64,000 nt of DNA from Candidatus Nomurabacteria bacterium (lineage in GTDB: Bacteria > Patescibacteriota > Minisyncoccia > Phycocordibacterales > UBA9973), in the NCBI GenBank assembly GCA_023267195.1, contig JAHFNT010000005.1, positions 14,875-78,874 on the forward strand, written 5' to 3'. Both the position numbers and the translations under genes were made by a program. Positions within the stretch are counted from its first letter, which is position 1, and every line of letters begins with the position of its first letter. The notes beneath the pieces are model-generated. The model did no database searches. It was given only the letters and a program-made list of their open reading frames with translations, and was not told where the DNA came from. Below, piece after piece: positions 21,048 through 60,403 of this stretch.

Positions 21048-22274
21048 ATGTATTCAAAAAAACTTATAGATTCTATTGAAAAGGAATTTGAAACGCTGAA
21101 AAGCGCTGGGAAATTTAAAGTGGAGAGGGAATTGGATGGAGCTCAGGGGGCAGAGGTGCGGATTGCGGGCAGACAAGTCCTGATGTTCGCCTCAAATAAT
21201 TATTTAGGTCTGGCTAATCATCCGGAAATTGTAAAAGCGGGGAAGGAGGCCATAGAGCAATACGGCTTCGGCTTGTCATCCGTCAGGTTTATTTCCGGCA
21301 CAGAAACGATTCACAAAATTTTAGAAAAAAAGTTAGCAGAATTTTTGGGCGTGGAGGATAGTATCTTGTATTCCACTAATTTCATGTCTAATCTAGGATT
21401 TTTTGCAACGATTACCAATGAAACTTTCGGCGACAGCGCTCCATACCTAGACGCGATTTATAGCGATGAGCTAAATCATGCTAGCATCATAGATGCTTTC
21501 AAGCTCTGCAAAAAAGAAAACGTTGTAAAAAGAATTTATTCTCATGGTGATGTTGCTTTACTGGAAAAAATGCTGGAAGAAGATAAAGAAAAAAATTATC
21601 GTTTTAAAATAATTGTAACAGATGGAGTTTTTTCTATGGAAGGATATCTGGCGCAACTGCCGGAACTAAAAAAGTTGGCAGAAAAATATGAGGCTATGCT
21701 TTTTGTGGATGATGCGCATGCCATCGGGGTGCTTGGGAAGACTGGCGCCGGAACGCCGGAACATTTTAATTTGCATGGGCAGGTGGATGTCCTTTCGGGG
21801 ACCTTCGGCAAAGCGCTAGGCGGAGCTGTGGGCGGATATATTGCCGGCAAGAAAAAAATAATAGAACTGCTTCGCCAAAAATCCCGCACGTATCTTTTTT
21901 CAAATTCTGTGCCTCCGTCTGTTGTCATCGCATCTATAAAGGCACTTGATTTATTAAAAGAAAAAAGAGAACTTTTGGACAAAGTAAGAGAAAATTCTGA
22001 ATACTTTAGAGCTGGAGCGCGAAAATTAGGTTTTAAAGTTTTAGAAGGCATTCATCCGATTGTGCCAGTAATGCTGGGTGATGCCGCTAAAACGCAAGAA
22101 ATTAGTCAGAAACTTTTAGCCAAAGGATTATTCGTTGTTGGATTATGGTTTCCGGTGGTGCCAGAAGGTGCTGCCCGCTTGCGTTTCCAAATTTCTGCCG
22201 CGCACACACATGAACAAATTGACCAAGCGCTCGAAATTTTATCAGAGGTAGGCAAAGAAATGAAAATAATTTAA
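21048..22274 (+). CDS. kbl: 2-amino-3-ketobutyrate CoA ligase (glycine C-acetyltransferase)
   Basis: PLP-dependent alpha-oxoamine synthase family (FASNNYLGLANHPE..., DDAHA, SGTFGKALGG PLP-Lys region). 408 aa. Confidence 0.85.
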   Translation: MYSKKLIDSIEKEFETLKSAGKFKVERELDGAQGAEVRIAGRQVLMFASNNYLGLANHPEIVKAGKEAIEQYGFGLSSVRFISGTETIHKILEKKLAEFLGVEDSILYSTNFMSNLGFFATITNETFGDSAPYLDAIYSDELNHASIIDAFKLCKKENVVKRIYSHGDVALLEKMLEEDKEKNYRFKIIVTDGVFSMEGYLAQLPELKKLAEKYEAMLFVDDAHAIGVLGKTGAGTPEHFNLHGQVDVLSGTFGKALGGAVGGYIAGKKKIIELLRQKSRTYLFSNSVPPSVVIASIKALDLLKEKRELLDKVRENSEYFRAGARKLGFKVLEGIHPIVPVMLGDAAKTQEISQKLLAKGLFVVGLWFPVVPEGAARLRFQISAAHTHEQIDQALEILSEVGKEMKII

Positions 22275-22281
22275 TTTTTTT

Positions 22282-22497
22282 ATGTTCAAAAACTTTTTAC
22301 TGAAAAAAATGCTTCGCACGCAAGGCGTGCCCGAAGCGCAAATAGAAATGTTCATAGTGATGATGGAGAAAAATCCAGAGCTTTTTAAAACTATAGCCGA
22401 AGAAGTGCAAACAAAAATGAAAGAGGGAATGAGCCAAATGGATGCGGGAATGCAGGTGATGAAAAAATACGAAGCGGATCTCAGAAAATTGGTGTAG
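22282..22497 (+). CDS. hypothetical Met-rich small helical protein
   Basis: 71 aa with 11 Met. Starts 8 nt after the kbl stop. No family recognised. There is a weak resemblance to Met-rich segments of the SRP54 M-domain. Confidence 0.35.
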   Translation: MFKNFLLKKMLRTQGVPEAQIEMFIVMMEKNPELFKTIAEEVQTKMKEGMSQMDAGMQVMKKYEADLRKLV

Positions 22498-22544
22498 ATT
22501 AAAAAGTGGAAAACTCCCACATTCGCAAGCTCGGTATTTTCAAC

Positions 22545-22573
22545 TTGACAATACCCCCTAGGGGGTATATACT
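22545..22573 (+). promoter_or_regulatory. sigma-70-like promoter carrying a CsoR-type operator
   Basis: TTGACA at 22545-22550. The 18-bp perfect palindrome ATACCCCCTAGGGGGTAT lies at 22551-22568. TATACT at 22568-22573, giving 17-bp spacing. It sits immediately upstream of csoR and closely resembles the B. subtilis copZA CsoR operator (TACCC...GGGTA). Confidence 0.7.
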
Positions 22574-22579
22574 TCCCCT

Positions 22580-22843
22580 ATGCACACAAATAAACAAAAA
22601 GTCATTCGCCGACTGAAGATTCTAGAAGGCCAAGTGCGGGGCTTGCAAAATATGGTTGAAAAAGATACTTACTGTATTGATGTCATAACGCAGACTTCTG
22701 CAGTGAAGCAGGGTCTTTCTAATGTTGAAGATATTTTGATGGATGGGCATTTGGGGCATTGTGTTATTAATCAAATCAAAAAAGGAGAAACAGCTAAAGC
22801 CAAAACGGAAATATTAAAAGTTTATAAATTAAAAAGAAAATAG
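22580..22843 (+). CDS. csoR: CsoR-family copper-sensing transcriptional repressor
   Basis: DUF156/CsoR fold: RLKILEGQVRGLQNMVEKDTYCIDVITQTSAVKQGL...HLGHCV with Cys and His ligands in the canonical positions. Confidence 0.85.
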   Translation: MHTNKQKVIRRLKILEGQVRGLQNMVEKDTYCIDVITQTSAVKQGLSNVEDILMDGHLGHCVINQIKKGETAKAKTEILKVYKLKRK

Positions 22844-22894
22844 ATCGACAAGGGCTTCGACTGGGCTCAGCCGAAAATCCTCACTATAAATAGT

Positions 22895-25219
22895 ATGAAC
22901 ACATTTAAAACATACAAGGTAAAAGGAATGCATTGCGCGTCTTGCGCCAGTATTATTGAAAGAACTATCAAGAAAATTGAGGGGGTAGCAAATATTGAGG
23001 TGAATCCGGGCACCGAAAATGCCAAGATTTCTTTTGATACAAACAAAACCAACGCGGAACAATTTAATCAAAAACTTGAACCACTTGGTTACTCGCTACA
23101 CAATATGAACATGTCAGCAAACGCTTCGGCTGTGCTCAGTGCAAGTGATATGAATATGAGTGAAGATGAACATAAAGAGCATTTGGGACTGAATCAAACT
23201 AAAAAAGAAAAGTTGGCAGAACTGAAGGACATGAAGAATAAACTTCTTTCTCTAATTCCTATTGTGCTCATTAGTATTTTTGTAATGAGTTACGATATTT
23301 TGGCGCAGTTTAAAGTTATTGCCGAGATGTCTTATTTCTGGAATGAATTTTTCCATCATCTTTTACCAGTTTTGGCCACTTACACGCTATTTGTAGTTGG
23401 TAAGCCATACTTACTCGGCTTATATCGTTTTTTTCGTCATGGACAAGCCAACATGGACACACTTATTGGTCTCGGTACGCTAGTGGCTTTTTTATATAGT
23501 TTTATTGTTAGCGCTTTTGAAGAAAGTTTAAAGGCTTTTATAAATGTCAATCAAAGTTATTACGATGTTACTATCATTGTGATTGCTTTCATTACACTTG
23601 GAAAATATCTGGAAGCGCGTTCAAAATTAAAAACAGGCGATGCGATTGAAAAACTTTTAAATCTACAGGCGAAAACTGCTTTAGTGGTTCGCGGTGAAAG
23701 GGAAGTTGAAATTCCGGTAGATCAAGTTATGCATGGTGATATTATTATCGTAAAACCCGGGGCAAAAATTCCAGTTGATGGCCTGATTGTTTCAGGATTT
23801 TCTTATGTTGATGAATCAATGGTGACCGGCGAACCAATGCCAGTAGAAAAAAAAGAGGGAGATGCTGTAGTATCTGGGACGATTAATACAACGGGATCTT
23901 TCACTTTTAGGGCGACGAAAGTTGGTGGAGAAACTCTGCTTGCCCATATTGTGAAAATGGTGGAAGAAGCACAAGGGAGTAAGGCACCGATACAGGCTTT
24001 GGCGGACAAAATTTCCAGTATCTTTGTGCCGGTTGTTTTGGGGATTGCAGTTTTGACTTTAGTGTTATGGCTTTTAGTTGGTATGCAATATTTTGGTTTC
24101 TCCCAAGCGCTTTCTTTTGGTTTGGTTTCTTTTGTGGGGATTTTGGTTATTGCATGTCCATGCGCTCTCGGTCTGGCGACACCGACGGCAATCATTGTTG
24201 GTGTAGGCAAAGGTGCGCGCGAAGGAATTTTAATCAAAGATGCGGCAACATTGCAAAAATTACACCAAGTCAATGTAGTTGTCGTGGATAAAACAGGTAC
24301 TTTGACTATGGGGAAACCCGAGCTTATTGCAGTTAAAAATTTTTCAAATAAAAATGATGATGAGCTGGTTTCTATTCTGGCCACTTTAGAAAATAAATCA
24401 GAACACCCTATTGCTCACGCCGTAATAAATTATGCAAAATCAAAAAAGCTAAAAATTAGCGAGCTGAATGATTTTGAAATTATAAAGGGCAAAGGACTTA
24501 AAGGAAGGGTTGACGGGGTAGAATATTTTGCTGGTAATACTAGACTAATTGAGGATCTAAATCTGCCGTTTGATAAAAATCTTTTGGAAAAAGAAACCTT
24601 GGAAGGCAAGACCCCGATAATTTTGGCGAATCAAAATGCAGTGCTCTGTGTGGTTTTGATAGCGGACGCGATAAAACCGGAAGCGATCGAGGCAGTAAAT
24701 AATTTACACAAACTCGGCGTCAAAATTGTGATGTTGACAGGAGACCATAAAAATACTGCTAAATATATTGCGAAGCTTGTCGGTATTGATGATATCGTGT
24801 CGGAAGCAATGCCGGAGAGTAAATTAGATAAAATCAAAGAATTGCAAGCGGAAGGCCAGGTCGTGGCGATGGCTGGAGATGGAGTAAATGACGCACCGGC
24901 GCTCGCGCAAGCGGATGTGGGTATTGCTATGGCTACTGGGACAGATGTGGCGATTGAAAGCGCTGGCATTACACTTCTACATGGCGATATTTCCAAACTA
25001 GTGAAAGCTATAAAACTTTCTAAAATGACAATGCGTGGAATCAAGCAGAATCTTTTCTGGGCTTTTGTTTATAATATTATTGGAATTCCGCTCGCATCTG
25101 GAATTTTCTTCCCATTCTTTGGTTGGTTGCTTTCGCCAGTCTTTGCTGGGTTTGCCATGGCGATGTCTTCAGTGTCTGTGGTAGGGAATTCGCTTCGCAT
25201 TAAGAGTAAAAAATTGTAA
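22895..25219 (+). CDS. copA: copper-translocating P1B-type ATPase
   Basis: N-terminal HMA domain (GMHCASCAS), TM CPC motif ([11 protein letters not shown]), DKTGTLT phosphorylation site, GDGVNDAP hinge. Confidence 0.92.
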
Positions 25220-25265
25220 AATTATAAAGGGTCGAATTTTTATAAGCAATAATTAAAATAAATTT

Positions 25266-25385
25266 ATGATGGGATATGGATATGGTGGAATGATGGGGGG
25301 CGGTTTTGGTTCTATTGTAGCCTTAATAGTGTTGGTTGATCTTGTTTTGTTCGGTATCTGGCTTTATAAAAATATTAATAAATAA
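25266..25385 (+). CDS. unannotated 39-aa Met/Gly-rich single-TM micropeptide
   Basis: ATG at 25266, stop at 25383-25385. Encodes MMGYGYGGMMGGGFGSIVALIVLVDLVLFGIWLYKNINK. Lies directly downstream of copA. Below the ORF-track size cutoff. Confidence 0.3.
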   Translation: MMGYGYGGMMGGGFGSIVALIVLVDLVLFGIWLYKNINK

Positions 25386-25388
25386 AAA

Positions 25389-25793
25389 ATGTATTTACGG
25401 AACAGAAAATTATTCATAGGTGTTTGCATTTTACTTGCTTATATAAGCATTGGAGTATTTGGCTTGCTTAAGCTTGACCATAAGATTGAAATGCCTATGG
25501 ATAATTGTCCGTATGCCCAAAATAGTTATGCAATATGTGAGAATAGTCTTGACCATATAAATAACTGGCAGCAATTTTTAAACGCAATTTCGCCATCTCT
25601 TTTCATATTTTCAATTTTAATTCTAGGAATAGTTTTATATTTAGTTACCAAACACAATTTTTTAAATCAAAAAAGTTATTTTTATAAATGGAAGTATTGC
25701 TTATATAATAAAAAATTATATCCTTACTCGAACATAATAATAAAATGGCTAGCATTTTTTGAAAACAGCCCTTCCTTTTTCTACAGGGCGTAG
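25389..25793 (+). CDS. hypothetical membrane protein (2 TM, CPYAQNSYAIC motif)
   Basis: ORF only. Very AT-rich. No family recognised. Confidence 0.3.
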   Translation: MYLRNRKLFIGVCILLAYISIGVFGLLKLDHKIEMPMDNCPYAQNSYAICENSLDHINNWQQFLNAISPSLFIFSILILGIVLYLVTKHNFLNQKSYFYKWKYCLYNKKLYPYSNIIIKWLAFFENSPSFFYRA

Positions 25794-25877
25794 CTAATTA
25801 TTTTGTCGTAAAATTTTTAGCTTTGCCTTCTGGTCCTCATATGAGGATTTTTTACTATTCTAATTATCTACAATATT

Positions 25878-26411
25878 ATGGACAAAAAAACAATTATCTC
25901 GTTATTAATTATCTTTGCTTTTGTTGGAGGTTTAGCGTGGTGGAGTAAATCAGTATCAATAGAAGAAAAAGAATCTCGCGCATTTGAACTTGGGGGTTCG
26001 CATCTGGTAAAAATTGGCAATACGGCAAATGTGCTTACTGCCATGGAAACCTTCTATGACTTCGGTACGATCTCCATGAAGAACGGGAATGTGAGCAAAA
26101 TATTCAAGCTAACTAATTCAACAAACGAAGATATATTGGTGCCGAGCGTAAGTACTTCCTGCATGTGTACTACCGCGTATGTACTCAAGGGTGGGGTAAG
26201 AAGCAGGCCTTATGGAATGCCGGGGCACGGTGGAGCGGTTCCGAAGGCAAATGAAATTGTAAAAGCGGGCGAATCGCTTGAGATTGAAGTAGTATATGAT
26301 CCCAATGCTCACGGTCCTGCTGGTGTCGGTTTGATTGAGCGCTCTGTGTTCGTGGAAGACGAGAATACAAATGTAACAGAACTCAAGTTCAAGGTTAACG
26401 TAACCCCATAA
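25878..26411 (+). CDS. DUF1573 domain-containing exported protein
   Basis: N-terminal TM/signal. FYDFGTISMKNGNVSKIFKLTNSTNEDILVPSVSTSCMCT matches the DUF1573 core (FDFGTI...F.F.NTG...L.I..V..SCGCT). Confidence 0.65.
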   Translation: MDKKTIISLLIIFAFVGGLAWWSKSVSIEEKESRAFELGGSHLVKIGNTANVLTAMETFYDFGTISMKNGNVSKIFKLTNSTNEDILVPSVSTSCMCTTAYVLKGGVRSRPYGMPGHGGAVPKANEIVKAGESLEIEVVYDPNAHGPAGVGLIERSVFVEDENTNVTELKFKVNVTP

Positions 26412-26415
26412 AAAT

Positions 26416-27195
26416 ATGAAAAAAATTATTATTATAATCAGCCTTGTGCTAATCGCCATAATTGGCATAGTTATTCTAAAAAACAATCCCGCAACTTCGG
26501 CTATTGTTTGGAACATAAGCAAAGAAGGTACCTGGCTTTTGCCGCTTCTTTTAGTGTCGGCGATTCTAGACAGCGTGCATCCTTGTTCGTTCTCAATTCT
26601 GCTGATCACAATAGCATTTCTGTTTGGTATTCAACTTAGCCGAGAGAAAATTCTTAAATTGGGCGGAACATACATTGCTGGAATATTCACAGCCTATTTC
26701 TTGATTGGGTTGGGAATTCTGAAAGTACTTCACTTGTTCAATACTCCACACTTCATGGGTAAATTAGGATCAACACTTCTGATTACTTTCGGAGTGATAA
26801 ATATTCTAAATCGTTTTTTCCCGAAATTTCCAATCAAGTTAAAGATTCCTGGAATTTCTCACTCGGCGATGGGTCGCTTGATGGACAGAGCTTCATTTCC
26901 AGCAGTATTTGGGCTCGGATTGCTTGTCGGTATTTGCCAATTCCCATGTATGGGTGGCCCGTATCTTATGGTTATCGGGCTCTTGCGTGATCAAGTGACA
27001 TATTTGAGCGGATTTAACTACCTTCTCTTGTATAATCTTATCTTAATTATTCCTCTGGTTGTGGTGTTATTTATCTCAGCTGATAAGTTACTGGTGGAAA
27101 AAGTGCAAATTTGGAAACGCGACAATTTAGGCGGATTAAAACTCTGGACCGGTATTGCGATGATTATTATTGGTATCTTAATATTCCTTATCTAA
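26416..27195 (+). CDS. ccdA: cytochrome c-type biogenesis / thiol-disulfide transmembrane electron transporter, CcdA (DsbD family)
   Basis: Polytopic. Two conserved Cys motifs in TM helices (DSVHPCSFSILL and GICQFPCMGGPY), typical of CcdA/DsbD beta. Confidence 0.7.
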   Translation: MKKIIIIISLVLIAIIGIVILKNNPATSAIVWNISKEGTWLLPLLLVSAILDSVHPCSFSILLITIAFLFGIQLSREKILKLGGTYIAGIFTAYFLIGLGILKVLHLFNTPHFMGKLGSTLLITFGVINILNRFFPKFPIKLKIPGISHSAMGRLMDRASFPAVFGLGLLVGICQFPCMGGPYLMVIGLLRDQVTYLSGFNYLLLYNLILIIPLVVVLFISADKLLVEKVQIWKRDNLGGLKLWTGIAMIIIGILIFLI

Positions 27196-27199
27196 ATAT

Positions 27200-27694
27200 A
27201 TGACTAAAAAAATAATAGAAATAGATGAATTTATAAATAAAATAAATTCACTCAAAGAAAAAGTGGGGGTGGACATATCAACCGCCGAAGACCTGAGTAT
27301 GGCTGTGATGAATCTAATTAGCCTTGAAGAACATTTCTTTTTTACTGGCGTTAAAACAGGCAAGGATGAATATTTTGACACAACACTTGAAATACGCGAG
27401 GTGAGAAAAGACTTATTGGCCAAACTTATGCCAAATAATGAAGGCGAGACCTGGTGTATCTCAAAACACCTGTTGGCCACGACCATGCGACTTATAGAAG
27501 TTGGGAACAAACTTAATTCCGAGGGTAAAAAAGAGAAAGCCAAAGAAATCTTTCAAAAAGCGTACCAAGTATATTCGATTTTCTGGGCGCTTAAATTGAA
27601 ATTAATCAGTGGGGAGAAAATACAACAAAAAGCTAAAGACAGTTCGCGTTTGGAAGACTTGGTCGATAAATTAGCTGACTGTTGTGATGAATAG
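27200..27694 (+). CDS. hypothetical cytoplasmic protein ending in Cys-Cys-Asp-Glu
   Basis: 164 aa, no TM, C-terminal ...LADCCDE. Co-oriented and tightly packed within the metal island. Confidence 0.4.
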   Translation: MTKKIIEIDEFINKINSLKEKVGVDISTAEDLSMAVMNLISLEEHFFFTGVKTGKDEYFDTTLEIREVRKDLLAKLMPNNEGETWCISKHLLATTMRLIEVGNKLNSEGKKEKAKEIFQKAYQVYSIFWALKLKLISGEKIQQKAKDSSRLEDLVDKLADCCDE

Positions 27695-28382
27695 ATTAAA
27701 TATGAAAAATAAAATAAAAGAAATACTATATTCAGTTCTGGCTATTATTGTGATCGTATTCTTGGGTCTTGCCCCTATGGGAGAAAAAGCATTTGCCCTA
27801 AATTGGGGCAACCTGGGAATGAAAATGATGGAAGCGGGTGTGATTGATCAAGAGAAATTTGAAAATCTGTATCAGGAACGAGGTGGGCTTAACGAGGCGG
27901 ATAAAAAGTTACTCTATAGTGCGCGCAATAAAAATCTAATTATCACCCCGGAGAATTCTCACATGATGCTCAATATGCTCTGGGCCTTAGGGCTCGGAAA
28001 TAAAAATCCCATTCTTGAAAATGGGCCAATGATGGACCCACGATATGGGGGAGCAGCGAATTTCGCATCTACCGGTGGCTGGATCCTGGCTAAAGGAAAC
28101 GCAATGGATCATTACAGTATGCATGAGTTCATAAAATTAACACCCGAAGAGCAAGGGCTAGTGGAAAAAGTGGCCAAAAATATTTATCGTCCTTGCTGTA
28201 GTAATCCAGCGTATTTTCCGGATTGTAATCATGGTATGGCGATGCTAGGACTTCTTGAAATGATGGCTTCGCAAGGCGCAGCGGAAGAAGAAATGTATAA
28301 ACTTGCGACAGAAGTAAATACTCTTTGGTTTCCAGAATTACAAAAGCAACAACAAAAAGGTGGGACAGGTTGTGGAGCTTAA
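27684..28382 (+). CDS. membrane-anchored exported protein with RPCCSNP...DCNHG cysteine motif
   Basis: N-terminal TM anchor. Soluble domain with CC-X10-C-X-H and a C-terminal GGTGCGA. No family recognised. Overlaps the upstream ORF by 11 nt; an alternative ATG lies at 27702. Confidence 0.45.
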   Translation: MMNRLNMKNKIKEILYSVLAIIVIVFLGLAPMGEKAFALNWGNLGMKMMEAGVIDQEKFENLYQERGGLNEADKKLLYSARNKNLIITPENSHMMLNMLWALGLGNKNPILENGPMMDPRYGGAANFASTGGWILAKGNAMDHYSMHEFIKLTPEEQGLVEKVAKNIYRPCCSNPAYFPDCNHGMAMLGLLEMMASQGAAEEEMYKLATEVNTLWFPELQKQQQKGGTGCGA

Positions 28383-28388
28383 GTTTTT

Positions 28389-29441
28389 GTGATAAGATGT
28401 ATCTTTATTATGAGATATTATACATTTCATGTTCAAGGCACTCATTGCGCATCGTGTAAAATCTTAATTGAAGATGTTTTGGAAGAGCAAGATTTTATCA
28501 AAAGGGTGCAGGTGAATCTAAAAAGAGAAATAGTGGAAATAGAAACGGAAAGCGAAAAGAGCCCAGAAGAACTTATTGCAATCTTAAATCCAAAAATAAA
28601 ACAAAATGGCTATGTGCTTTCTCTAGATGGTTCGGCTCCTCTCACCACAGGAAAAAATACAGAAATAAAAAATGACAACAATGTGCTTTGGCAAGCGATA
28701 CCCATCGGACTTGTATTCTTAGCGTTGTTTTTTTTATTACAAAAATCTGGCATTTTAGATCTTGGCTTTGGGGGCGAGACGACGCCAGCGACCAGTTTTC
28801 TTATTGGTTTGATCGCCTCAGTTTCGAGTTGTCTGGCGGTCGTTGGTGGCTTGGTTTTGTCTTTATCCGCCAAGATATCAGAAGATGATGAAAGCGACAC
28901 AAAAACTTTTATACTTTTTCACTCCGGTAGATTGTTTAGTTTTGCCATTTTAGGTGGGGCGCTAGGATTAATAGGCAACGCTATTGGTATTAATTTTACC
29001 TTTACGGCAATATTGGGTTTGGTCGCGTCTTTAGTGATGCTATTTCTTGGTTTGAATTTAGTGGGCGTGTTTACTAAAAATAAAATAACTTTGCCGTCTG
29101 GAATTTTTAACTTCTTTAGAAAAATTGAGCACAAGACTTTTACTCCGCTCATTATTGGTTTTGCCACTTTTTTTCTGCCATGCGGATTTACCCAATCAAT
29201 GCAAGTTGTTGCACTCTCCAGCGGATCATTTGTGTCTGGGCTCTTAATTATGTTGGCTTTTGCTTTAGGAACTTTGCCTATGCTTTTATTATTATCGTTC
29301 GGGTCAGCGTCTTTTGCCCATTCAAAATATGCGCCGCTATTTTTCAAATCAGCTGGAGTGGTGGTAATAGGTCTAGGAGTATTTGCGCTGCTTGCAGGGT
29401 TGGCTGGTTTGGGAATTATAAATCCACTATTTAATATTTGA
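28389..29441 (+). CDS. HMA (heavy-metal-associated) domain fused to a DsbD_2/TauE-SafE-like polytopic permease
   Basis: N-terminal YTFHVQGTHCASCKILIE is an HMA fold with a CxxC metal site. Followed by ~8 TM helices with Cys-bearing motifs (SSCLAVVGG, FFLPCGFTQS) as in the PF13386-type family. Confidence 0.6.
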   Translation: MIRCIFIMRYYTFHVQGTHCASCKILIEDVLEEQDFIKRVQVNLKREIVEIETESEKSPEELIAILNPKIKQNGYVLSLDGSAPLTTGKNTEIKNDNNVLWQAIPIGLVFLALFFLLQKSGILDLGFGGETTPATSFLIGLIASVSSCLAVVGGLVLSLSAKISEDDESDTKTFILFHSGRLFSFAILGGALGLIGNAIGINFTFTAILGLVASLVMLFLGLNLVGVFTKNKITLPSGIFNFFRKIEHKTFTPLIIGFATFFLPCGFTQSMQVVALSSGSFVSGLLIMLAFALGTLPMLLLLSFGSASFAHSKYAPLFFKSAGVVVIGLGVFALLAGLAGLGIINPLFNI

Positions 29442-29462
29442 TTTGCTATAATTAACTATCTT

Positions 29463-29837
29463 ATGAATAAAACAGTTTCAATCATAATTACATTAGGGCT
29501 CGTTGTTGCCATCGCGATTATTTTTACCGGCGGGGGAGATAAGTTTGCAGAAAAGGTAGAAATAAGGGATGGGGTTCAATATGTCACAGTTAATGCTAAG
29601 GGTGGGTATTTCCCTAGGGTTTCAAATGCCAAAGCTGGCATTCCGACTAAACTGCTGGTGAAGACTAGTGGTACTTATGACTGTTCAGCTTCTTTGGTGA
29701 TTAAGTCCATTAATTATCAAAAAATTCTTCCCCAAAATGGAGTGACTGAAATTGATATTGGCACACCCGGGGCGGGTAAACCCCTCCAGGGAGTGTGTGG
29801 AATGGGAATGTATAGTTTTCAAGTTAATTTTCAATAG
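29463..29837 (+). CDS. cupredoxin-like (PF13473-type) exported protein
   Basis: N-terminal TM anchor. ~90-aa beta-rich domain with the C-terminal pattern C...C..GMGMY, reminiscent of Cupredoxin_1 domains (...C...GH..M). Confidence 0.45.
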   Translation: MNKTVSIIITLGLVVAIAIIFTGGGDKFAEKVEIRDGVQYVTVNAKGGYFPRVSNAKAGIPTKLLVKTSGTYDCSASLVIKSINYQKILPQNGVTEIDIGTPGAGKPLQGVCGMGMYSFQVNFQ

Positions 29838-29905
29838 TTGTTTCTAAAACTTTTTAGAATATTTATATTTGCATATAAAGCTTTCTATATTATAATTACT
29901 TTATT

Positions 29906-31474
29906 ATGACTTTCATGCATAGGATCTTAAATTTCTTAAAAAATAAGAAGTATGTTTGTGGTGCTATTGCGCTAGCCCTGGTAATTGGCGGTATATTTGT
30001 GTTCAAAAATAATAAAGTAGCGAACGATACTCTCATAGTCCACTCAGCTGATTTCGTGAATCAGGTTTCGGTTTCTGGAAAAGTTGTAGCGTCGGATGAT
30101 GTTAGTCTTGGTTTTTCACAAGGTGGCAGAATAGCTTCCGTCCGTTTTAAGGTTGGTGATATTGTCACCGATGGAACACTTTTAGCTAGTGTGGAAAATG
30201 GAGATTTACGGGCTGATTTAACTCAAAAAGAAGCGGCTCTAGAAAAAGTACAGGCAGATTTAAAATCTTTGCAAATTGGGACTAGGCCGGAACAAATTGC
30301 TATTACAGAATCTGCGCTTGCAAGCGCAGAGACCGCTTTCGGTCAAGCGGGGCAGGGTGTTGTTAATTCTATCAACGATGCTTATACAAAATCAGACGAT
30401 GCGATTAAAAACAAAATAGACCAATTTTTTAGAAATCCATTATCTAATGATCCATATATCAGGTTGTCTGTGGATGACAACCTTCTGATATCTTCAGTCA
30501 ATCAAGAAAGAAAAGCTGTTGGTTTGACTCTTGCATCATGGGAAAAATCTGTTTTAGAAATGAATTCAGGGACGAATTTAGATAAATATATTTCTGAGGC
30601 AGAAAAAAATATGAATCAACTCAAAACATTTTTGGCGAAAGTTTCTTTGATTACCAATGATCCTGAAGTTACGTATGATGGGAATAATACTATTCCAAGT
30701 ACTTGGAAAACTGACACCTCAACAGCCCGATTGGCGGTTGATACGGCGGTTTCAAGTTTAGCTTCTGCTGTTACTTCATATAGAAGCGCCGAGTCTGATC
30801 TTATTACCAAGCAAAATAATTTAAAACTTGAACAAGCTGGATCGACACAAGAAGAGTTGGATGCAAAAACGGCAGAGATCAAGGGGGCAGAAGCAAGTGT
30901 TTTGAGCGCGAAAGCCAATTTACAGAAAACCTTAATTGTTGCTCCGTTCGATGGGATAATAACAAAAATAGATGCAAAGATTGGAGAAGTTGCATCTGCT
31001 AATGTTTCTGTTGTGGAGATGATGAGTGTAGGAACTTTCCAAATAGAAAGCTATGTGCCGGAAATTAATATCGCCTTAATTAAACTCGGCAATGATGCTG
31101 ATGTTACCCTAGATGCTTACGGCGAGAGTGTGTTGTTTAAAGCAAAAGTTGTTTCCATTGATCCAGCTGAAACAATTCGCGACGGAGTTTCTACTTACAA
31201 AATAAAACTTCAATTCAGTGAGAAGGATGAACGTATAAAATCTGGAATGACAGCTAATGTTTCTATTACGGTTTTCAACAAGCCTGGCGTGATAGCCATT
31301 CCTGGAGGAATTGTTTTTGAGAAAGAAGGAAAAAAATTTGTACAAGTAAAAGTTGATGAAGTGGTAGAAGACAAGGAAGTAATTCTCGGAAGTGTTTCTG
31401 CTCTAGGCAAAGTTGAGGTTGTTTCCGGCTTGGTGGATGGCGATATGGTTATTCTTAATCCGGAAATAAAATAA
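29906..31474 (+). CDS. HlyD/MacA-type periplasmic adaptor (membrane fusion protein)
   Basis: N-terminal TM, biotin-lipoyl-like hairpin (TLLASVENGDL), long coiled coils, C-terminal beta-barrel/MPD. Confidence 0.75.
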   Translation: MTFMHRILNFLKNKKYVCGAIALALVIGGIFVFKNNKVANDTLIVHSADFVNQVSVSGKVVASDDVSLGFSQGGRIASVRFKVGDIVTDGTLLASVENGDLRADLTQKEAALEKVQADLKSLQIGTRPEQIAITESALASAETAFGQAGQGVVNSINDAYTKSDDAIKNKIDQFFRNPLSNDPYIRLSVDDNLLISSVNQERKAVGLTLASWEKSVLEMNSGTNLDKYISEAEKNMNQLKTFLAKVSLITNDPEVTYDGNNTIPSTWKTDTSTARLAVDTAVSSLASAVTSYRSAESDLITKQNNLKLEQAGSTQEELDAKTAEIKGAEASVLSAKANLQKTLIVAPFDGIITKIDAKIGEVASANVSVVEMMSVGTFQIESYVPEINIALIKLGNDADVTLDAYGESVLFKAKVVSIDPAETIRDGVSTYKIKLQFSEKDERIKSGMTANVSITVFNKPGVIAIPGGIVFEKEGKKFVQVKVDEVVEDKEVILGSVSALGKVEVVSGLVDGDMVILNPEIK

Positions 31475-31475
31475 T

Positions 31476-32732
31476 ATGTTTTCCTCATTAAATATTCGTA
31501 TTGGATTTTTCCTGGCGAAGCGTCAGATAAGGAGGTCAAATCCATGGACCACTGTACTCATAATTTTTGTGATGTTTTTTACTTTTCTAAATTTGGTGGT
31601 GGTAAGTGGAATTTTAGTCGGACTTATCCAGGGGGCAATCGATGCTGTGCGTACTCACTACACAAGCGATGTGATTATTTCCTCACTCAATAATAAAACT
31701 TATATAGAAAACAGTCCCGAAGTTTTAAGCATTGTTAAATCGATACCAGAGATAGAAGTTTTTTCTGCACGATACTTAGATGGAGGCACACTAGAGGCAA
31801 ATTATAAAACGCGGACAAATGAAAAAGAAAAACCAAACACGGCGGTAGCTTCAATAACAGGCATAGATCCAATTGCAGAGAACGAGGTGACGAATCTTTC
31901 CAAGTTTATAGTAGAAGGTGAGTATTTAGCGCCAGGAGACTATGATCAGGTGCTCTTGGGGGCTTATCTTGATAAAAAATATTTGCCGATTGATTCTCCT
32001 GGGTTTTCTGCGCTTAATAATGTTGAACCAGGTACTAAAATTAGGCTGAAAGTTCATGGGGTGGAACGCGAAGTTACTATTAAAGGTATTATAAAGGCAA
32101 AAGTCGATGAACTTAGTATGAGAGTATTCATGGTTGATTCTCAGCTGCGTAGTATGATTGGGCGCAATGATTATAATGTGGCCGAAATATCTATAAAATT
32201 AAAACCAGGGACTGATCCCAATATAGTTCGAGATATTTTAAAACTAAATGGAGTTGATAAAGTTGCCAAAGTTCAGACCTATGCCGATGCTCAGCCGAAA
32301 TTTATTAAAGATATGGTGGACACTTTTGCTTTGCTTGGAAACATGCTTTCCTCTATCGGGCTAGTAGTTGCTTCCATTACGATTTTTATCGTGATTTTTA
32401 TTAACGCCATAACCAGAAGGAAATTCATCGGCATTTTAAAGGGAATTGGTATTAACGAAAGAGCTATTGAAATATCGTATATTTTGCAATCTTTCTTTTA
32501 TGCATTTTGCGGTTCGCTTGTGGGTATTATTGTGCTTTATGCATTTCTCCAACCGTTTATGTCGGCGCACCCAATCGATTTTCCTTTTAGTGACGGAATT
32601 CTGGTAGCTCCAATCAGTGGTACGATAGCACGCATAGCTCTGTTGATGATTACTACGATTGTTGCCGGTTTCATTCCAGCCCGTCTGGTCGTTCGCAAGA
32701 ATACACTAGATTCAATATTAGGCAGAAATTAA
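31476..32732 (+). CDS. ABC transporter permease, MacB/FtsX family
   Basis: N-terminal TM, large extracytoplasmic MacB_PCD-like domain, C-terminal FtsX 3-TM bundle. Confidence 0.75.
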   Translation: MFSSLNIRIGFFLAKRQIRRSNPWTTVLIIFVMFFTFLNLVVVSGILVGLIQGAIDAVRTHYTSDVIISSLNNKTYIENSPEVLSIVKSIPEIEVFSARYLDGGTLEANYKTRTNEKEKPNTAVASITGIDPIAENEVTNLSKFIVEGEYLAPGDYDQVLLGAYLDKKYLPIDSPGFSALNNVEPGTKIRLKVHGVEREVTIKGIIKAKVDELSMRVFMVDSQLRSMIGRNDYNVAEISIKLKPGTDPNIVRDILKLNGVDKVAKVQTYADAQPKFIKDMVDTFALLGNMLSSIGLVVASITIFIVIFINAITRRKFIGILKGIGINERAIEISYILQSFFYAFCGSLVGIIVLYAFLQPFMSAHPIDFPFSDGILVAPISGTIARIALLMITTIVAGFIPARLVVRKNTLDSILGRN

Positions 32733-32742
32733 TTGAGAATTT

Positions 32743-33417
32743 ATGATTGAAGTAAAAAATTTAAAAAAATCATTCAAAGATGGGGAAAGTATCACCGAAG
32801 TCTTGAAAGGAATAGATTTTGTGGCCAAAAGCGGAGAATTTGTTGCTATCATGGGACGTTCAGGCGCCGGCAAAAGTACCTTTCTTTATCAAATGAGCCT
32901 TCTGGACGAGCCGACAAGTGGAGAGATTCTTATTGATGGAAAAAATGTTTCTTCTTTGACGGTAGGCGAAAAAACAAACTTCCGTCTTTCTGATTTAGGA
33001 TATGTTTTTCAAGATTATGCCCTGCTTCCAGAAATGACCGCATTAGAAAATGTCGCCTTGCCGCTTTTAATGCAAGGTTTCAGTGAAAAAAAAGCATTAG
33101 AAAAAGCGACAGAACATTTGATTTTGGTCGGTCTTGGAGAAAGATTAAAGAATTTACCAAGCCAACTTTCTGGCGGAGAACAACAGAGGGTAAGTGTTGC
33201 GCGGGCTATCGCTCATGAGCCGAAAATTTTATTCGCTGACGAACCAACAGCTAACCTAGATAATGAATCATCTCGCGTTATTATGAATATTTTGAAAGAG
33301 TTGCACAAGGAAGGACAAACGATAATAATGGTTACGCACGAAGTTGAATATAGCAAATTTGCAGAACGCATAATTCACCTAGATGATGGGAAAATAGTCT
33401 CTATTGATAAAAATTAA
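32743..33417 (+). CDS. ABC transporter ATP-binding protein (MacB/LolD-like)
   Basis: Walker A GRSGAGKST, signature LSGGEQQRVSVARA, Walker B ILFADEPT, H-loop. Confidence 0.9.
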   Translation: MIEVKNLKKSFKDGESITEVLKGIDFVAKSGEFVAIMGRSGAGKSTFLYQMSLLDEPTSGEILIDGKNVSSLTVGEKTNFRLSDLGYVFQDYALLPEMTALENVALPLLMQGFSEKKALEKATEHLILVGLGERLKNLPSQLSGGEQQRVSVARAIAHEPKILFADEPTANLDNESSRVIMNILKELHKEGQTIIMVTHEVEYSKFAERIIHLDDGKIVSIDKN

Positions 33418-33456
33418 CTAAATGAGTTATTATGTAGTATATATAAAGATTGTATT

Positions 33457-34365
33457 ATGTTAAATAAAAATAAATTTATATTAACACTCGCTGGAGTTCT
33501 TGCTTTGGTTCTTATGGGGGGAGCCGTGGCTTTTGCCGAGCAGGCTGTACCGGGAGATTCGCTTTACAGAGTAAAGATTTTTGTAAATGAACCAATTGCT
33601 GGAATCTTTGCTTTATCACAAGAAGAAAAAACGGAATGGGTAGAGCGTCTGGTAGAAAGACGGCTAGAAGAATCAAGAAAACTTGCCTTCAATGGCAATC
33701 TCGATGGATCTGCAAGAGTTAATCTCCAAAATCAAATAGAAAGTAAAATTAATGAATTTAACTTAAGTGTAGGTCAGCTTGCTCTTAAAAAGGGTGAATT
33801 AACTAACGCATCAAACCTAAATATAAGACTACAGGCATCGCTTAAGGCTTATCAAAACGTGCTAGAAAAGCTTTTAGCTGATACCAACATTAAAGCAGAT
33901 ACAAAACAAGAGACCGAAAAATTAATTTTCACCCTCGCGGGATTCCAAAATGAAATGAACAATGCTAGTAAAAAAATCGAGTTGGTTAATAGGGCGGTAC
34001 TCGATTTAGCGTCGGTGCTTAATGAGCAAAGTATGGCTGAGAATTTACTAAATTCAATAAAACTTTCGTACCAAAAAGAAAAAATAAATTTATCTTTAAA
34101 TATACAAAATCAAATCAATGGCAAGCTCGCAAAAGCAGAAAATTTACTTGACGAGGGGAAGCTGTTTGTGGCCTCTGCTGATTATCAAATCGCGAATGAT
34201 AAATTTCAGTTGGTGATAACCCTAGTAAATGAAGGAAAACTTCTCTTGTTGTCTAATGTGATAAGAAGGGAAATTGATGATGGGGATGATATTAGAGAGG
34301 ATGAAGATGTTGATGACTACGGTAATTTTATTGAAGATGAAAGCTTCGAGTTCGAGGGTGACTGA
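33457..34365 (+). CDS. exported coiled-coil protein with strongly acidic C-terminal tail
   Basis: Signal peptide, ~250 aa of heptad-rich sequence, C-terminal DDGDDIREDEDVDDYGNFIEDESFEFEGD. Downstream of the MacAB-like genes. Confidence 0.45.
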   Translation: MLNKNKFILTLAGVLALVLMGGAVAFAEQAVPGDSLYRVKIFVNEPIAGIFALSQEEKTEWVERLVERRLEESRKLAFNGNLDGSARVNLQNQIESKINEFNLSVGQLALKKGELTNASNLNIRLQASLKAYQNVLEKLLADTNIKADTKQETEKLIFTLAGFQNEMNNASKKIELVNRAVLDLASVLNEQSMAENLLNSIKLSYQKEKINLSLNIQNQINGKLAKAENLLDEGKLFVASADYQIANDKFQLVITLVNEGKLLLLSNVIRREIDDGDDIREDEDVDDYGNFIEDESFEFEGD

Positions 34366-60157: not shown

Positions 60158-60403
60158 ATGCCCAACACAATGCCAGCCGTAACAATCTATTCAACCCCAA
60201 CTTGCCATTTTTGCCATATGGCTAAAGATTTTTTTACCAAAAACGGTATTGTTTACACAGAATATAACGTAGCGAGTGATTTAGAAAAACGCAAAGAAAT
60301 GGTAGAAAAGTCTGGCCAGCTGGGCGTGCCTGTTATTATTATCGGCGATGAACTTACGGTGGGTTTTAATCAGCCTAAAATTGCGGGATTACTCGGGTTG
60401 TAG
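60158..60403 (+). CDS. glutaredoxin-like protein (NrdH/Grx, CHFC active site)
   Basis: 81 aa. VTIYSTPTCHFCHMAKDFF, GVP motif (GQLGVPVIII). Thioredoxin fold. Confidence 0.8.
   Translation: MPNTMPAVTIYSTPTCHFCHMAKDFFTKNGIVYTEYNVASDLEKRKEMVEKSGQLGVPVIIIGDELTVGFNQPKIAGLLGL

Follow-up and report, generated by a model that had tools for sequence, protein, structure and literature searches.

A nine-gene island in a Candidatus Nomurabacteria genome, whose genes we call g1 to g9 in order (Table 1), is best read as a copper-linked, DsbD/CcdA-fed envelope thiol system assembled from a DUF1573 protein (g4) and three families that have no Pfam entry (g3, g6, and g7). The island lies in a 64,000-nucleotide stretch of contig JAHFNT010000005.1 (assembly GCA_023267195.1, positions 14,875 to 78,874, forward strand), which we analyzed as a whole and refer to as the window; its G+C content is ~38%. 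Besides csoR and copA (g1 and g2), the genes of a Cu(I) sensor and a Cu(I) exporter, the island consists of two modules: g3 to g7, a core found across the candidate phyla radiation (CPR), and g8 and g9. Judging from the sequences, we put the probability of the general model, in which the encoded proteins would form a copper-induced envelope thiol relay acting under copper stress, at roughly 0.55. The literature that we searched contained no description of a copper-linked g3-g7 thiol system.

The gene order of the island recurs in many related genomes. At least 594 GTDB species genomes encode relatives of g7; from these we took the closest 80 species loci, called open reading frames (ORFs), and searched them with iterated hidden Markov models (HMMs) of the window proteins. 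The order csoR-copA-g3-g4-g5-X-g7(-g8-g9), where X is a variable slot, was found in 26 loci, and the order g3-g4-g5-X-g7-(csoR)-copA in 35; the remaining 20 showed no copA in the DNA fetched, often owing to contig ends. A same-strand copA lies within 7.5 kb in 27 of the 29 species loci whose g7 is flanked on each side by at least 7 kb, and these same 29 loci include csoR in 17 cases, g8 in 10, and g9 in 8. Where at least 4.5 kb of 5′ DNA was available (64 loci), g3 was present in 53, g5 in 45, g4 in 42, and g6 in 16. The nine-gene order also appears on contigs from independent groundwater metagenomes, and an 813-kb Paceibacterota contig reads g3 - DsbD_TM - Redoxin - g6 - g7 - DUF3105 - CsoR - SHOCT - DUF302 - YHS - DUF305 ... 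P-type ATPase. Such recurrence of one gene order in many independent genomes is more than chance. A first-pass annotation of this DNA, made from the sequence alone, had staked its reading on conserved linkage to copA and csoR, and that linkage survives the survey. The closest 80 loci are nearly all labeled Patescibacteria or unclassified, with one labeled Gammaproteobacteria, and many GTDB representative metagenome-assembled genomes with the locus (L005, L012, L018, and others, by our locus numbers) are titled “uncultured Candidatus Saccharibacteria bacterium.” The Saccharibacteria and Gammaproteobacteria titles are probably automated mislabels of Patescibacteria bins.

The slot directly 5′ of g7 varies by lineage, yet it is nearly always filled by a thiol-active protein. 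We distinguished four types: (a) the soluble g6 type; (b) a protein with three to five transmembrane (TM) segments, one of which contains CPxC, and with ...MKNCC at the end of its cytoplasmic tail; (c) a thioredoxin-like protein, exported and bearing the motif WCPHC, found in 6 loci; and (d) a Redoxin/AhpC-TSA protein, which fills the slot beside CcdA in L001, L012, and L015. Vicinal cysteines (CC) fall within the last six residues of 35 of the 72 ORFs directly 5′ of g7, compared with 62 of 2890 background ORFs. Examples are L002:7523-7972, L009:9659-9973, L010:7469-7915, and L040:9352-9801, with ~14 other loci. Two unrelated scaffolds, g6 and the CPxC protein with three to five TM segments, share a charged C-terminal tail that closes with a vicinal CC, which looks like convergence on one functional tail. 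Across these loci g7 is constant while its redox neighbors are interchangeable, the pattern expected of a client or effector of a CcdA-fed reductive pathway.

Within the window, the first-pass annotation had described nine co-directional, tightly spaced ORFs behind a CsoR operator. All nine are there, separated in order by 51, 169, 84, 4, 4, −11 (an overlap), 6, and 21 nt, and each of the Cys motifs quoted for g4, g6, g7, g8, and g9 is found in the translations. The nine genes do not behave as the single unit that it had proposed, as the g3-g7 core is CPR-wide and g8-g9 are present in only about one-third of related loci. We agree that csoR and copA are canonical. The g1 protein scores 84.6 bits against PF02583 (cut-off 22.8) and is RicR-like by NCBIfam, and its translation contains the ligand triad C32/H57/C61, with H-x3-C spacing and Cys positions that are kept in 46 relatives; profile and triad identify it as CsoR. 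CopA is identified in g2 by its family models (TIGR01511 at 605.7 bits against a cut-off of 397, and an E1-E2 ATPase domain), by the N-terminal HMA domain (59.9 bits), and by the ion-site motifs CPC (ACPCALG), YN (FVYNIIG), and MxxSS (MAMSSVS), which can be read off the sequence.

Table 1. Genes and predicted regulatory features of the island (positions are those of the window).
Feature	Position	Strand	Description
Sigma-70-type promoter	22545..22573	+	TTGACA-17-TATACT; consensus match only, 11/12 positions
CsoR operator (predicted)	22551..22568		Perfect palindrome ATACCCCCTAGGGGGTAT, between the -35 and -10 hexamers
g1 (csoR)	22580-22843	+	CsoR-family Cu(I)-sensing repressor, 87 aa
g2 (copA)	22895-25219	+	P1B-1 Cu(I)-exporting ATPase, N-terminal HMA, 774 aa
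g3	25389-25793	+	Small 2-TM Cys-pair protein; no Pfam family
Hairpin and T-run between g3 and g4	25832..25849	+	Weak; 7 pairs, 3 of them G-C; consensus match only
g4	25878-26411	+	Exported or anchored DUF1573 protein, CxC
g5	26416-27195	+	Divergent CcdA-type membrane thiol:disulfide electron conduit (predicted), 259 aa
g6	27200-27694	+	Cytoplasmic helical-bundle protein ending ...LADCCDE; no Pfam family
g7	27684-28382	+	Membrane-anchored exported Cys3His protein, module core; no Pfam family
g8	28389-29441	+	Cytoplasmic HMA fused to 7-TM DsbD_2 core
g9	29463-29837	+	Membrane-anchored CupA-like cupredoxin

Three proteins of the core module, g3, g6, and g7, have no match in Pfam, NCBIfam, or PDB sequences, and the g5 protein of the window has none in Pfam. 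Among relatives of g5, 14 of 24 match PF02683 (DsbD_TM), and a search with the profile of the family recovers the solved structure of CcdA, 5VKV (E = 1.5 × 10−20 over 226 positions), with both Cys motifs aligned. These two Cys positions, by which CcdA proteins are recognized, are strongly kept in the family alignment (P56-C57 at ≥90%, C178 invariant). By its profile, g5 is thus a divergent CcdA relative, as the first-pass annotation had it, and it would pass electrons from cytoplasmic thioredoxin to an exported partner. An apparent DUF1573-CcdA fusion at L059:8401-9735 was rejected as an artefact because the ORF spans a masked run of N; its CcdA part has SCCAP rather than the PC motif.

That partner could be g4, which scores 44.5 bits against PF07610 (DUF1573; cut-off 26.1) and whose motif S-T-S-C95-x-C97-T is invariant among 55 family members. 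It also has a weak NCBIfam match to the OS_HP2 (seleno)protein family. DUF1573 has no established function, and its sole functional mention in the literature that we found is a listing among selenoprotein families. DUF1573 selenoproteins carry UGC at the position of the CxC motif (PMC9312934), and such selenocysteine variants point to redox or soft-metal chemistry. The g3 protein, found in 64 of 84 loci by iterated HMM, has an outward loop of ~40 aa between its membrane segments and conserves C40, C50, and H56, as judged by conservation and hydropathy. For g6 there are 4036 homologues at 73-89% identity. They conserve the motifs EEHFFFT, EGETWCISKHLL, and the C-terminal LADCCDE, as well as H45, C86, H90, C161, and C162. 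Hydropathy indicates no TM segment in g6, and its predicted structure (predicted local distance difference test, pLDDT, 82.6) gives only generic fold matches.

The constant member of the module, g7, has 5624 homologues in a collection clustered at 90%, most of them under the names Nomurabacteria or Paceibacterota, and 532 representatives remain at 50% identity. Its motif RPCCSNP...DCNHG supplies the Cys3His set C171, C172, C181, and H183. In a 33-member alignment with a mean column identity of only 33%, the invariant residues are W100, A128, G132-W133, L152, R169, C171, C172, N174, D180-C181-N182-H183-G184, A186, and G189. Also conserved are P170, within the R169-P-C171-C172-x-N174 motif, Met and His residues, and C230 (≥90%) in a Gly-rich C-terminal tail. 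We found no paper describing this family in the literature searched.

The AlphaFold2 model of g7 is all-helical (pLDDT 78.6). Its top fold match is CcmH, with a CcmH-like helical subdomain, and this match and the CcdA identity of g5 are the two points in favor of a generic envelope disulfide reduction or cytochrome c maturation system (CcdA plus a CcmH-like protein) whose position beside copA would be accidental, the scenario that the first-pass annotation had itself named as a refutation. The resemblance is not significant at the sequence level: aligned by hhalign, g7 and CcmH give a probability of 0.5% and E = 0.12, though the same segment is in register; none of the 33 family members matches Pfam CcmH (PF03918); a Foldseek search with g7 found nothing; and the LRCxxC/CxxC redox motif of CcmH is missing from g7, which has RPCCxN instead. 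The 64-kb window contains no CxxCH cytochrome, and the Pfam-annotated called genes on the contigs examined include no ResB/CcsA or CcmF-type gene and, on the CPR contigs, no c-type cytochrome. We regard this reading as hardly credible and largely refuted, because the window lacks a c-type cytochrome, the annotated contexts lack heme-handling genes, and copA is a near-constant neighbor (27 of 29 loci). The same evidence bears out the earlier view that these thiol-rich proteins of membrane and envelope are a conserved set, linked to copper and distinct from cytochrome c maturation. The only CxxCH in the window is the TCHFCH of an 81-aa glutaredoxin/NrdH-like protein (60158-60403, +), which is not a cytochrome.

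The association of g7 with copper genes extends beyond CPR. A tblastn search with g7 and its Burkholderia homologue against 72,556 plasmids found homologues only in Burkholderia and Paraburkholderia, among them B. contaminans, B. thailandensis, and P. fungorum. The B. contaminans plasmid NZ_CP090638.1 (128436-146963; L088) carries a CueR-associated g7 island in the order CueR - DUF2933 - CcdA - peroxiredoxin - thioredoxin - ICMT-family - peroxiredoxin - P-type ATPase - g7 homologue - methyltransferase - cytochrome c - TlpA, in which the CcdA is of the g5 type (HMM E = 8 × 10−42). Next to it lies DUF411 - DsbD - CcdA - TlpA - SCO, and L088 as a whole holds two CcdA genes, two TlpA genes, and cytochromes c. 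In another phylum and with another copper sensor, g7 is thus again associated with a metal ATPase and with redox genes fed by CcdA. The Burkholderia homologue (WP_027810704.1) bears a twin-arginine (Tat-type) signal; this, together with lysine and arginine residues on the N side of the N-terminal anchor of g7, places the g7 domain outside the cytoplasm. An identity of g7 with the Cys-rich CopL of Cupriavidus metallidurans, encoded 3′ of copF, was rejected, as the plasmid search reached only Burkholderia and Paraburkholderia.

The Tat-type signal can also be read in another way, with g7 as a cofactor-bearing envelope redox enzyme rather than a copper buffer. The Cys3His set would then hold Fe-S, Zn, or Cu, CcdA and DUF1573 would be the electron supply, and the enzyme might reduce Cu(II) or peroxide, or isomerize disulfides. 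The invariant polar residues round the cysteines (R169, N174, D180, N182, H183, and G184, with W100 and W133) look more like an active site than a metal sponge, and the peroxiredoxin-type neighbors in L001 and Burkholderia as well as the CcmH-like helical subdomain fit an enzyme. We nevertheless consider this quite unlikely, since searches gave g7 neither a known cofactor motif nor a matching fold, its CPR homologues carry a Sec-type anchor instead of a Tat signal, and its linkage is tight and nearly exclusive to copA, not to oxidative-stress genes.

Other features of the g7 family are noted here as observations. Some members have N-terminal extensions of ~250 aa (P0152, P0157, P0216, and P0223, 450-550 aa; P0247, 603 aa). 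Nine of ten extended representatives (450-600 aa) contain no Pfam domain, and the tenth, P0247, has a C-terminal BNR/Asp-box region. The conserved Gly-rich tail of g7 ends ...GCGA, which places a Cys two residues from the C-terminus. Genes of the isoprenylcysteine carboxyl methyltransferase-like (ICMT) family recur in g7-bearing copper islands, as do those for DUF2933, SHOCT, DUF302, YHS, and DUF305 (L001:9834-12437, L088:4556-5215). It is pure speculation that an ICMT-like enzyme might act on a g7-type tail.

In the window, the best reading of the upstream sequence is that the island is transcribed from one predicted CsoR-repressed promoter. The promoter in Table 1 is the top match of a consensus scan over 22200-33600. 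The palindrome ATACCCCCTAGGGGGTAT that it encloses is unique in the window, where 0.01 chance matches are expected, and lies just outside the region covered by the first-pass annotation, which began at 22580. A G/C-tract pseudopalindromic operator overlapping its own promoter, the arrangement by which CsoR control is recognized, is present in the sequence. Among related loci, a box of the form ATACCCC-N1-4-GGGGTAT occurs 16-37 nt 5′ of csoR in 28 and ahead of copA in 3. A scan for terminator-like sequences found no convincing terminator inside the nine-gene block; the hairpin between g3 and g4 is a possible attenuating terminator, and the same interval holds a 9-of-12 promoter-like site by consensus scan. 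Copper-regulated co-transcription of the window genes is plausible on these grounds.

This predicted regulation bears on whether the module might instead serve copper acquisition or cuproprotein maturation, reducing and loading an exported copper enzyme in the manner of CcdA-TlpA-ScoI-PCuAC. The sequence CcdA to thiol reductase to Cys-containing Cu chaperone is indeed the logic of TlpA and ScoI (PMC7558416), and the Burkholderia island contains SCO, TlpA, and cytochrome c genes. The window genes, in contrast, share a predicted CsoR-repressed promoter with an efflux pump, which predicts that they are induced by copper excess; the constant neighbor is the exporter CopA; and no cuproenzyme gene lies in the window or beside the module in the 80 loci. 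We therefore hold a maturation role to be very unlikely.

The second module, g8-g9, joins recognizable copper and redox domains. The first-pass description of g8 as an HMA domain plus a DsbD_2-type permease is borne out by 39.5 bits for HMA and 113.8 bits for DsbD_2 (PF13386), both above cut-off. The HMA motif GTHCASC (C20xxC23) and the membrane cysteines C148 and C265 are all conserved. No experimentally defined substrate for the DsbD_2 family was found in the literature searched. The g9 protein scores 26.7 bits against Cupredoxin_1 (PF13473), just below the 27-bit cut-off, and its relatives match this family with E values as low as 7 × 10−13. A phmmer comparison of g9 with pneumococcal CupA (PDB 2MRY/4F2E) gives E = 5.7 × 10−4 over residues 29-117 and aligns C74, C112, M114, and M116 (C112-G-M-G-M), invariant in 18 relatives, with the four Cu(I) ligands of CupA. 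The cupredoxin call for g9 is thus probably right, while its presentation as a new part was not, since it is in all likelihood a homologue of a known Cu(I) chaperone.

Nor are g8 and g9 peculiar to this island. In Acetoanaerobium noterae, a single 490-aa HMA-DsbD_2-Cupredoxin_1 protein is encoded directly 5′ of copA (L091:4488-5960), and DsbD_2-Cupredoxin_1 fusions occur in MerR/HMA/P-type-ATPase islands on plasmids of Tsukamurella (L093:4212-5258) and Streptomyces (L092:4626-5828). These single-chain fusions, found in Clostridia and Actinobacteria, indicate that g8 and g9 are the split version of a widespread unit. We found no description of the HMA-DsbD_2-cupredoxin architecture in the literature searched; NCBI annotates these fusions as “sulfite exporter TauE/SafE family,” and the Tsukamurella gene adjoins merA and a multicopper oxidase. 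By hydropathy and the position of K/R-rich loops, the fusions are consistent with a 6-TM core whose two ends lie outside and to which the HMA forms add one N-terminal helix, so the HMA domain would lie inside and the cupredoxin outside. The g9 domain would probably lie outside the membrane as well, by analogy with this fusion topology. CupA-like domains are found elsewhere at the N-terminus of P-type ATPases and in lactococcal copY-cupA-copA operons.

A unit of this kind could also move metal rather than electrons. In such a scheme, g5 and g8 would form a Mer-type outward Cu(I) relay, an ATP-independent route parallel to CopA, with Cu(I) passing from the g6 CC tail and the g8 HMA domain to the membrane Cys pairs and on to DUF1573, g7, and the CupA-like g9 outside. 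In MerA, MerT, and MerF, metal is handed on by vicinal CC residues at the C-terminus and by Cys pairs in the membrane. The relay would account for the enrichment of CC tails 5′ of g7 (35 of 72 vs. 62 of 2890) on two unrelated scaffolds, for the metal-binding HMA domain of g8 where a thioredoxin-docking surface might be expected, for single chains that unite HMA and DsbD_2 with a Cu(I)-site cupredoxin and whose HMA and cupredoxin domains are predicted to face opposite sides of the membrane, and for the flexible Gly-rich C-terminal Cys of g7. We consider it possible but unlikely, as all characterized CcdA/DsbD members transfer electrons and not metals, the variable partners in relatives belong to classic types of redox enzyme (peroxiredoxin-, thioredoxin-, and TlpA-like), neither an energy source nor a directionality is evident, and CopA is already present in nearly all loci. 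The claim that DsbD-superfamily proteins of the g5 and g8 kind are Cys-relay Cu(I) translocators, widespread in CPR and, as HMA-DsbD_2-cupredoxin fusions, in other phyla, is doubtful to us; under it, the CPxC/CC-tail membrane variant would take the place of g6 as cytoplasmic donor.

The Mer relay itself (MerP, MerT/MerF, and the C-terminal CC of MerA) uses HMA domains, membrane Cys pairs, and a flexible C-terminal CC for soft-metal hand-off, and the island has the same kinds of elements arranged across a membrane. The two differ in that the island shows no homology to MerT, MerF, or MerA, its HMA domain is cytoplasmic rather than periplasmic, its metal is Cu(I) judging by sensor and pump, and any flow would run in the opposite direction.

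We favor the thiol relay, which would work as follows. CsoR would sense cytoplasmic Cu(I), and CopA would pump it out, as in the canonical system. The CcdA-type g5 would move reducing equivalents across the membrane to the CxC of the exported g4, whose place is taken in relatives by thioredoxin- or peroxiredoxin-like proteins. In turn, g4 would keep the g7 cysteines reduced, and probably the g3 Cys pair too. With its Cys3His site, Met and His residues, and flexible C-terminal Cys, g7 would bind Cu(I) at the outer face of the membrane, repair copper-oxidized thiols, or both, the bound Cu(I) being that expelled by CopA; g4 and g3 may bind Cu(I) as well. On the cytoplasmic side, g6 would be the partner of the relay through its CC tail. 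The g8-g9 pair would provide a second transmembrane Cys link, running from the HMA CxxC through a pair of cysteines in the membrane to a binuclear Cu(I) site of the CupA type.

Several points weigh against this model. Every mechanistic step, from the direction of electron flow to the role of g6, is one that we infer. The linkage figures come from the closest 80 loci only and are biased towards relatives of the window genome. Structural Zn or an Fe-S cluster could just as well occupy the Cys3His set of g7, and the Tat-type signal seen in Burkholderia would suit a protein that receives a cofactor in the cytoplasm; the CcmH homology, as described above, has no support from hhalign, Foldseek, or a CxxC motif. 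A weak hairpin and a promoter-like site interrupt the block between g3 and g4. In the 35 loci with the module 5′ of csoR/copA, no CsoR box (ACCC-N0-10-GGGT) was found ahead of g3, bar weak matches in 3 loci, which implies that copper control of the core module is not general. K/R counts place the g9-type domain in the cytoplasm in 9 of 18 relatives and outside in 3, and pneumococcal CupA is described as acting on the cytoplasmic side (PMC7558416). On balance, the extracytoplasmic copper/thiol theme of the first-pass annotation and its linkage to copA stand, while the novelty of g9, the single nine-gene unit, and a general copper regulation do not.

Among known systems, the closest logic is that of Scs, a likeness of function only, and of the CcdA/TlpA-type reductive pathways; the earlier comparison with CopC/CopD, CopG, and CueO modules is not supported. 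Scs comprises the copper-induced envelope reductases ScsB, ScsC, and ScsD, and ScsB also feeds an envelope peroxiredoxin (PMC10907172; PMC3322552). In Salmonella, Proteus, and Caulobacter, as proposed for the island, a DsbD-family transporter feeds exported Cys proteins that bind Cu(I) and repair thiols, and peroxiredoxin-type partners are also seen in relatives of the window locus. The island has neither an ScsB-type DsbD with periplasmic domains, its conduit being a minimal CcdA, nor thioredoxin-fold ScsC/ScsD proteins, as g4 (Ig-like, CxC), g7 (helical, CC...CxH), and g3 do not have that fold. It adds a cytoplasmic CC-tail protein, its host is a monoderm-like CPR bacterium, and its predicted regulator is CsoR rather than CueR/CpxR. 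Compared with CcdA/TlpA-ScoI-CoxB and CcdA-ResA/CcmG-CcmH, it has no cytochrome c, heme lyase, Sco, or oxidase genes; g7 is without CxxC, its comparison with the CcmH profile is not significant, and the island is linked to a copper exporter.

Two other systems resemble parts of the island. Like CupA in the copY-cupA-copA operon of Streptococcus pneumoniae, g9 is an anchored cupredoxin with Cys/Cys/Met/Met ligands encoded in a copA operon. CupA, described as acting at the cytoplasmic face, hands Cu(I) to a cupredoxin-type domain of CopA, whereas g2 has a ferredoxin-like HMA domain and g9 is paired with HMA-DsbD_2, to which it is fused in other phyla, and would face outside by the fusion topology. 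The CopL of Staphylococcus aureus is a surface Cu(I)-binding lipoprotein of the DUF1541 family, encoded with copB/copX and controlled by CsoR. It shares with g7 (by prediction) the role of a membrane-tethered extracellular Cu(I) binder that accompanies a CsoR-controlled exporter in a cell without an outer membrane; it differs in its unrelated fold (DUF1541) and in having no dedicated reductant supply.

The flanks of the island contain further genes. A 71-aa Met-rich ORF (11 Met, without signal peptide; 22282-22497, +) stops 48 nt before the csoR promoter and is kept in L011 (338-553, again directly before the CsoR box) and L015 (E = 1 × 10−34 and 4 × 10−31); its product may be a small protein with a role in copper handling or have nothing to do with copper. 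Directly 3′ of the island, 29906-33417 (+) encodes an HlyD/MacA-like adaptor (522 aa), an FtsX-type permease (418 aa), and an ABC ATPase (224 aa), with their own 10-of-12 promoter-like site (29868-29896) ahead of g10. In 5-6 related loci (L011, L015, L027, L054, and L078) these three genes again border the copper island, but in varying position and orientation, and the association is loose.

The fate of Cu(I) after its export by CopA is poorly understood in cells without an outer membrane, and for the CPR/Patescibacteria, a large share of bacterial diversity, nothing is known about copper handling after export. The island ties g3, g6, g7, and DUF1573 both to copper efflux and to the supply of reductant by CcdA, which gives these families candidate functions, and the linkage suggests that DUF1573 can replace thioredoxin-fold reductases. 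It also indicates that HMA, DsbD_2, and a CupA-like cupredoxin make up one unit, fused or split, across phyla. Because g7 homologues are carried on Burkholderia plasmids and the triple fusion by a Clostridium relative, both in cultivable hosts, these hypotheses may be tested without culturing a CPR organism.

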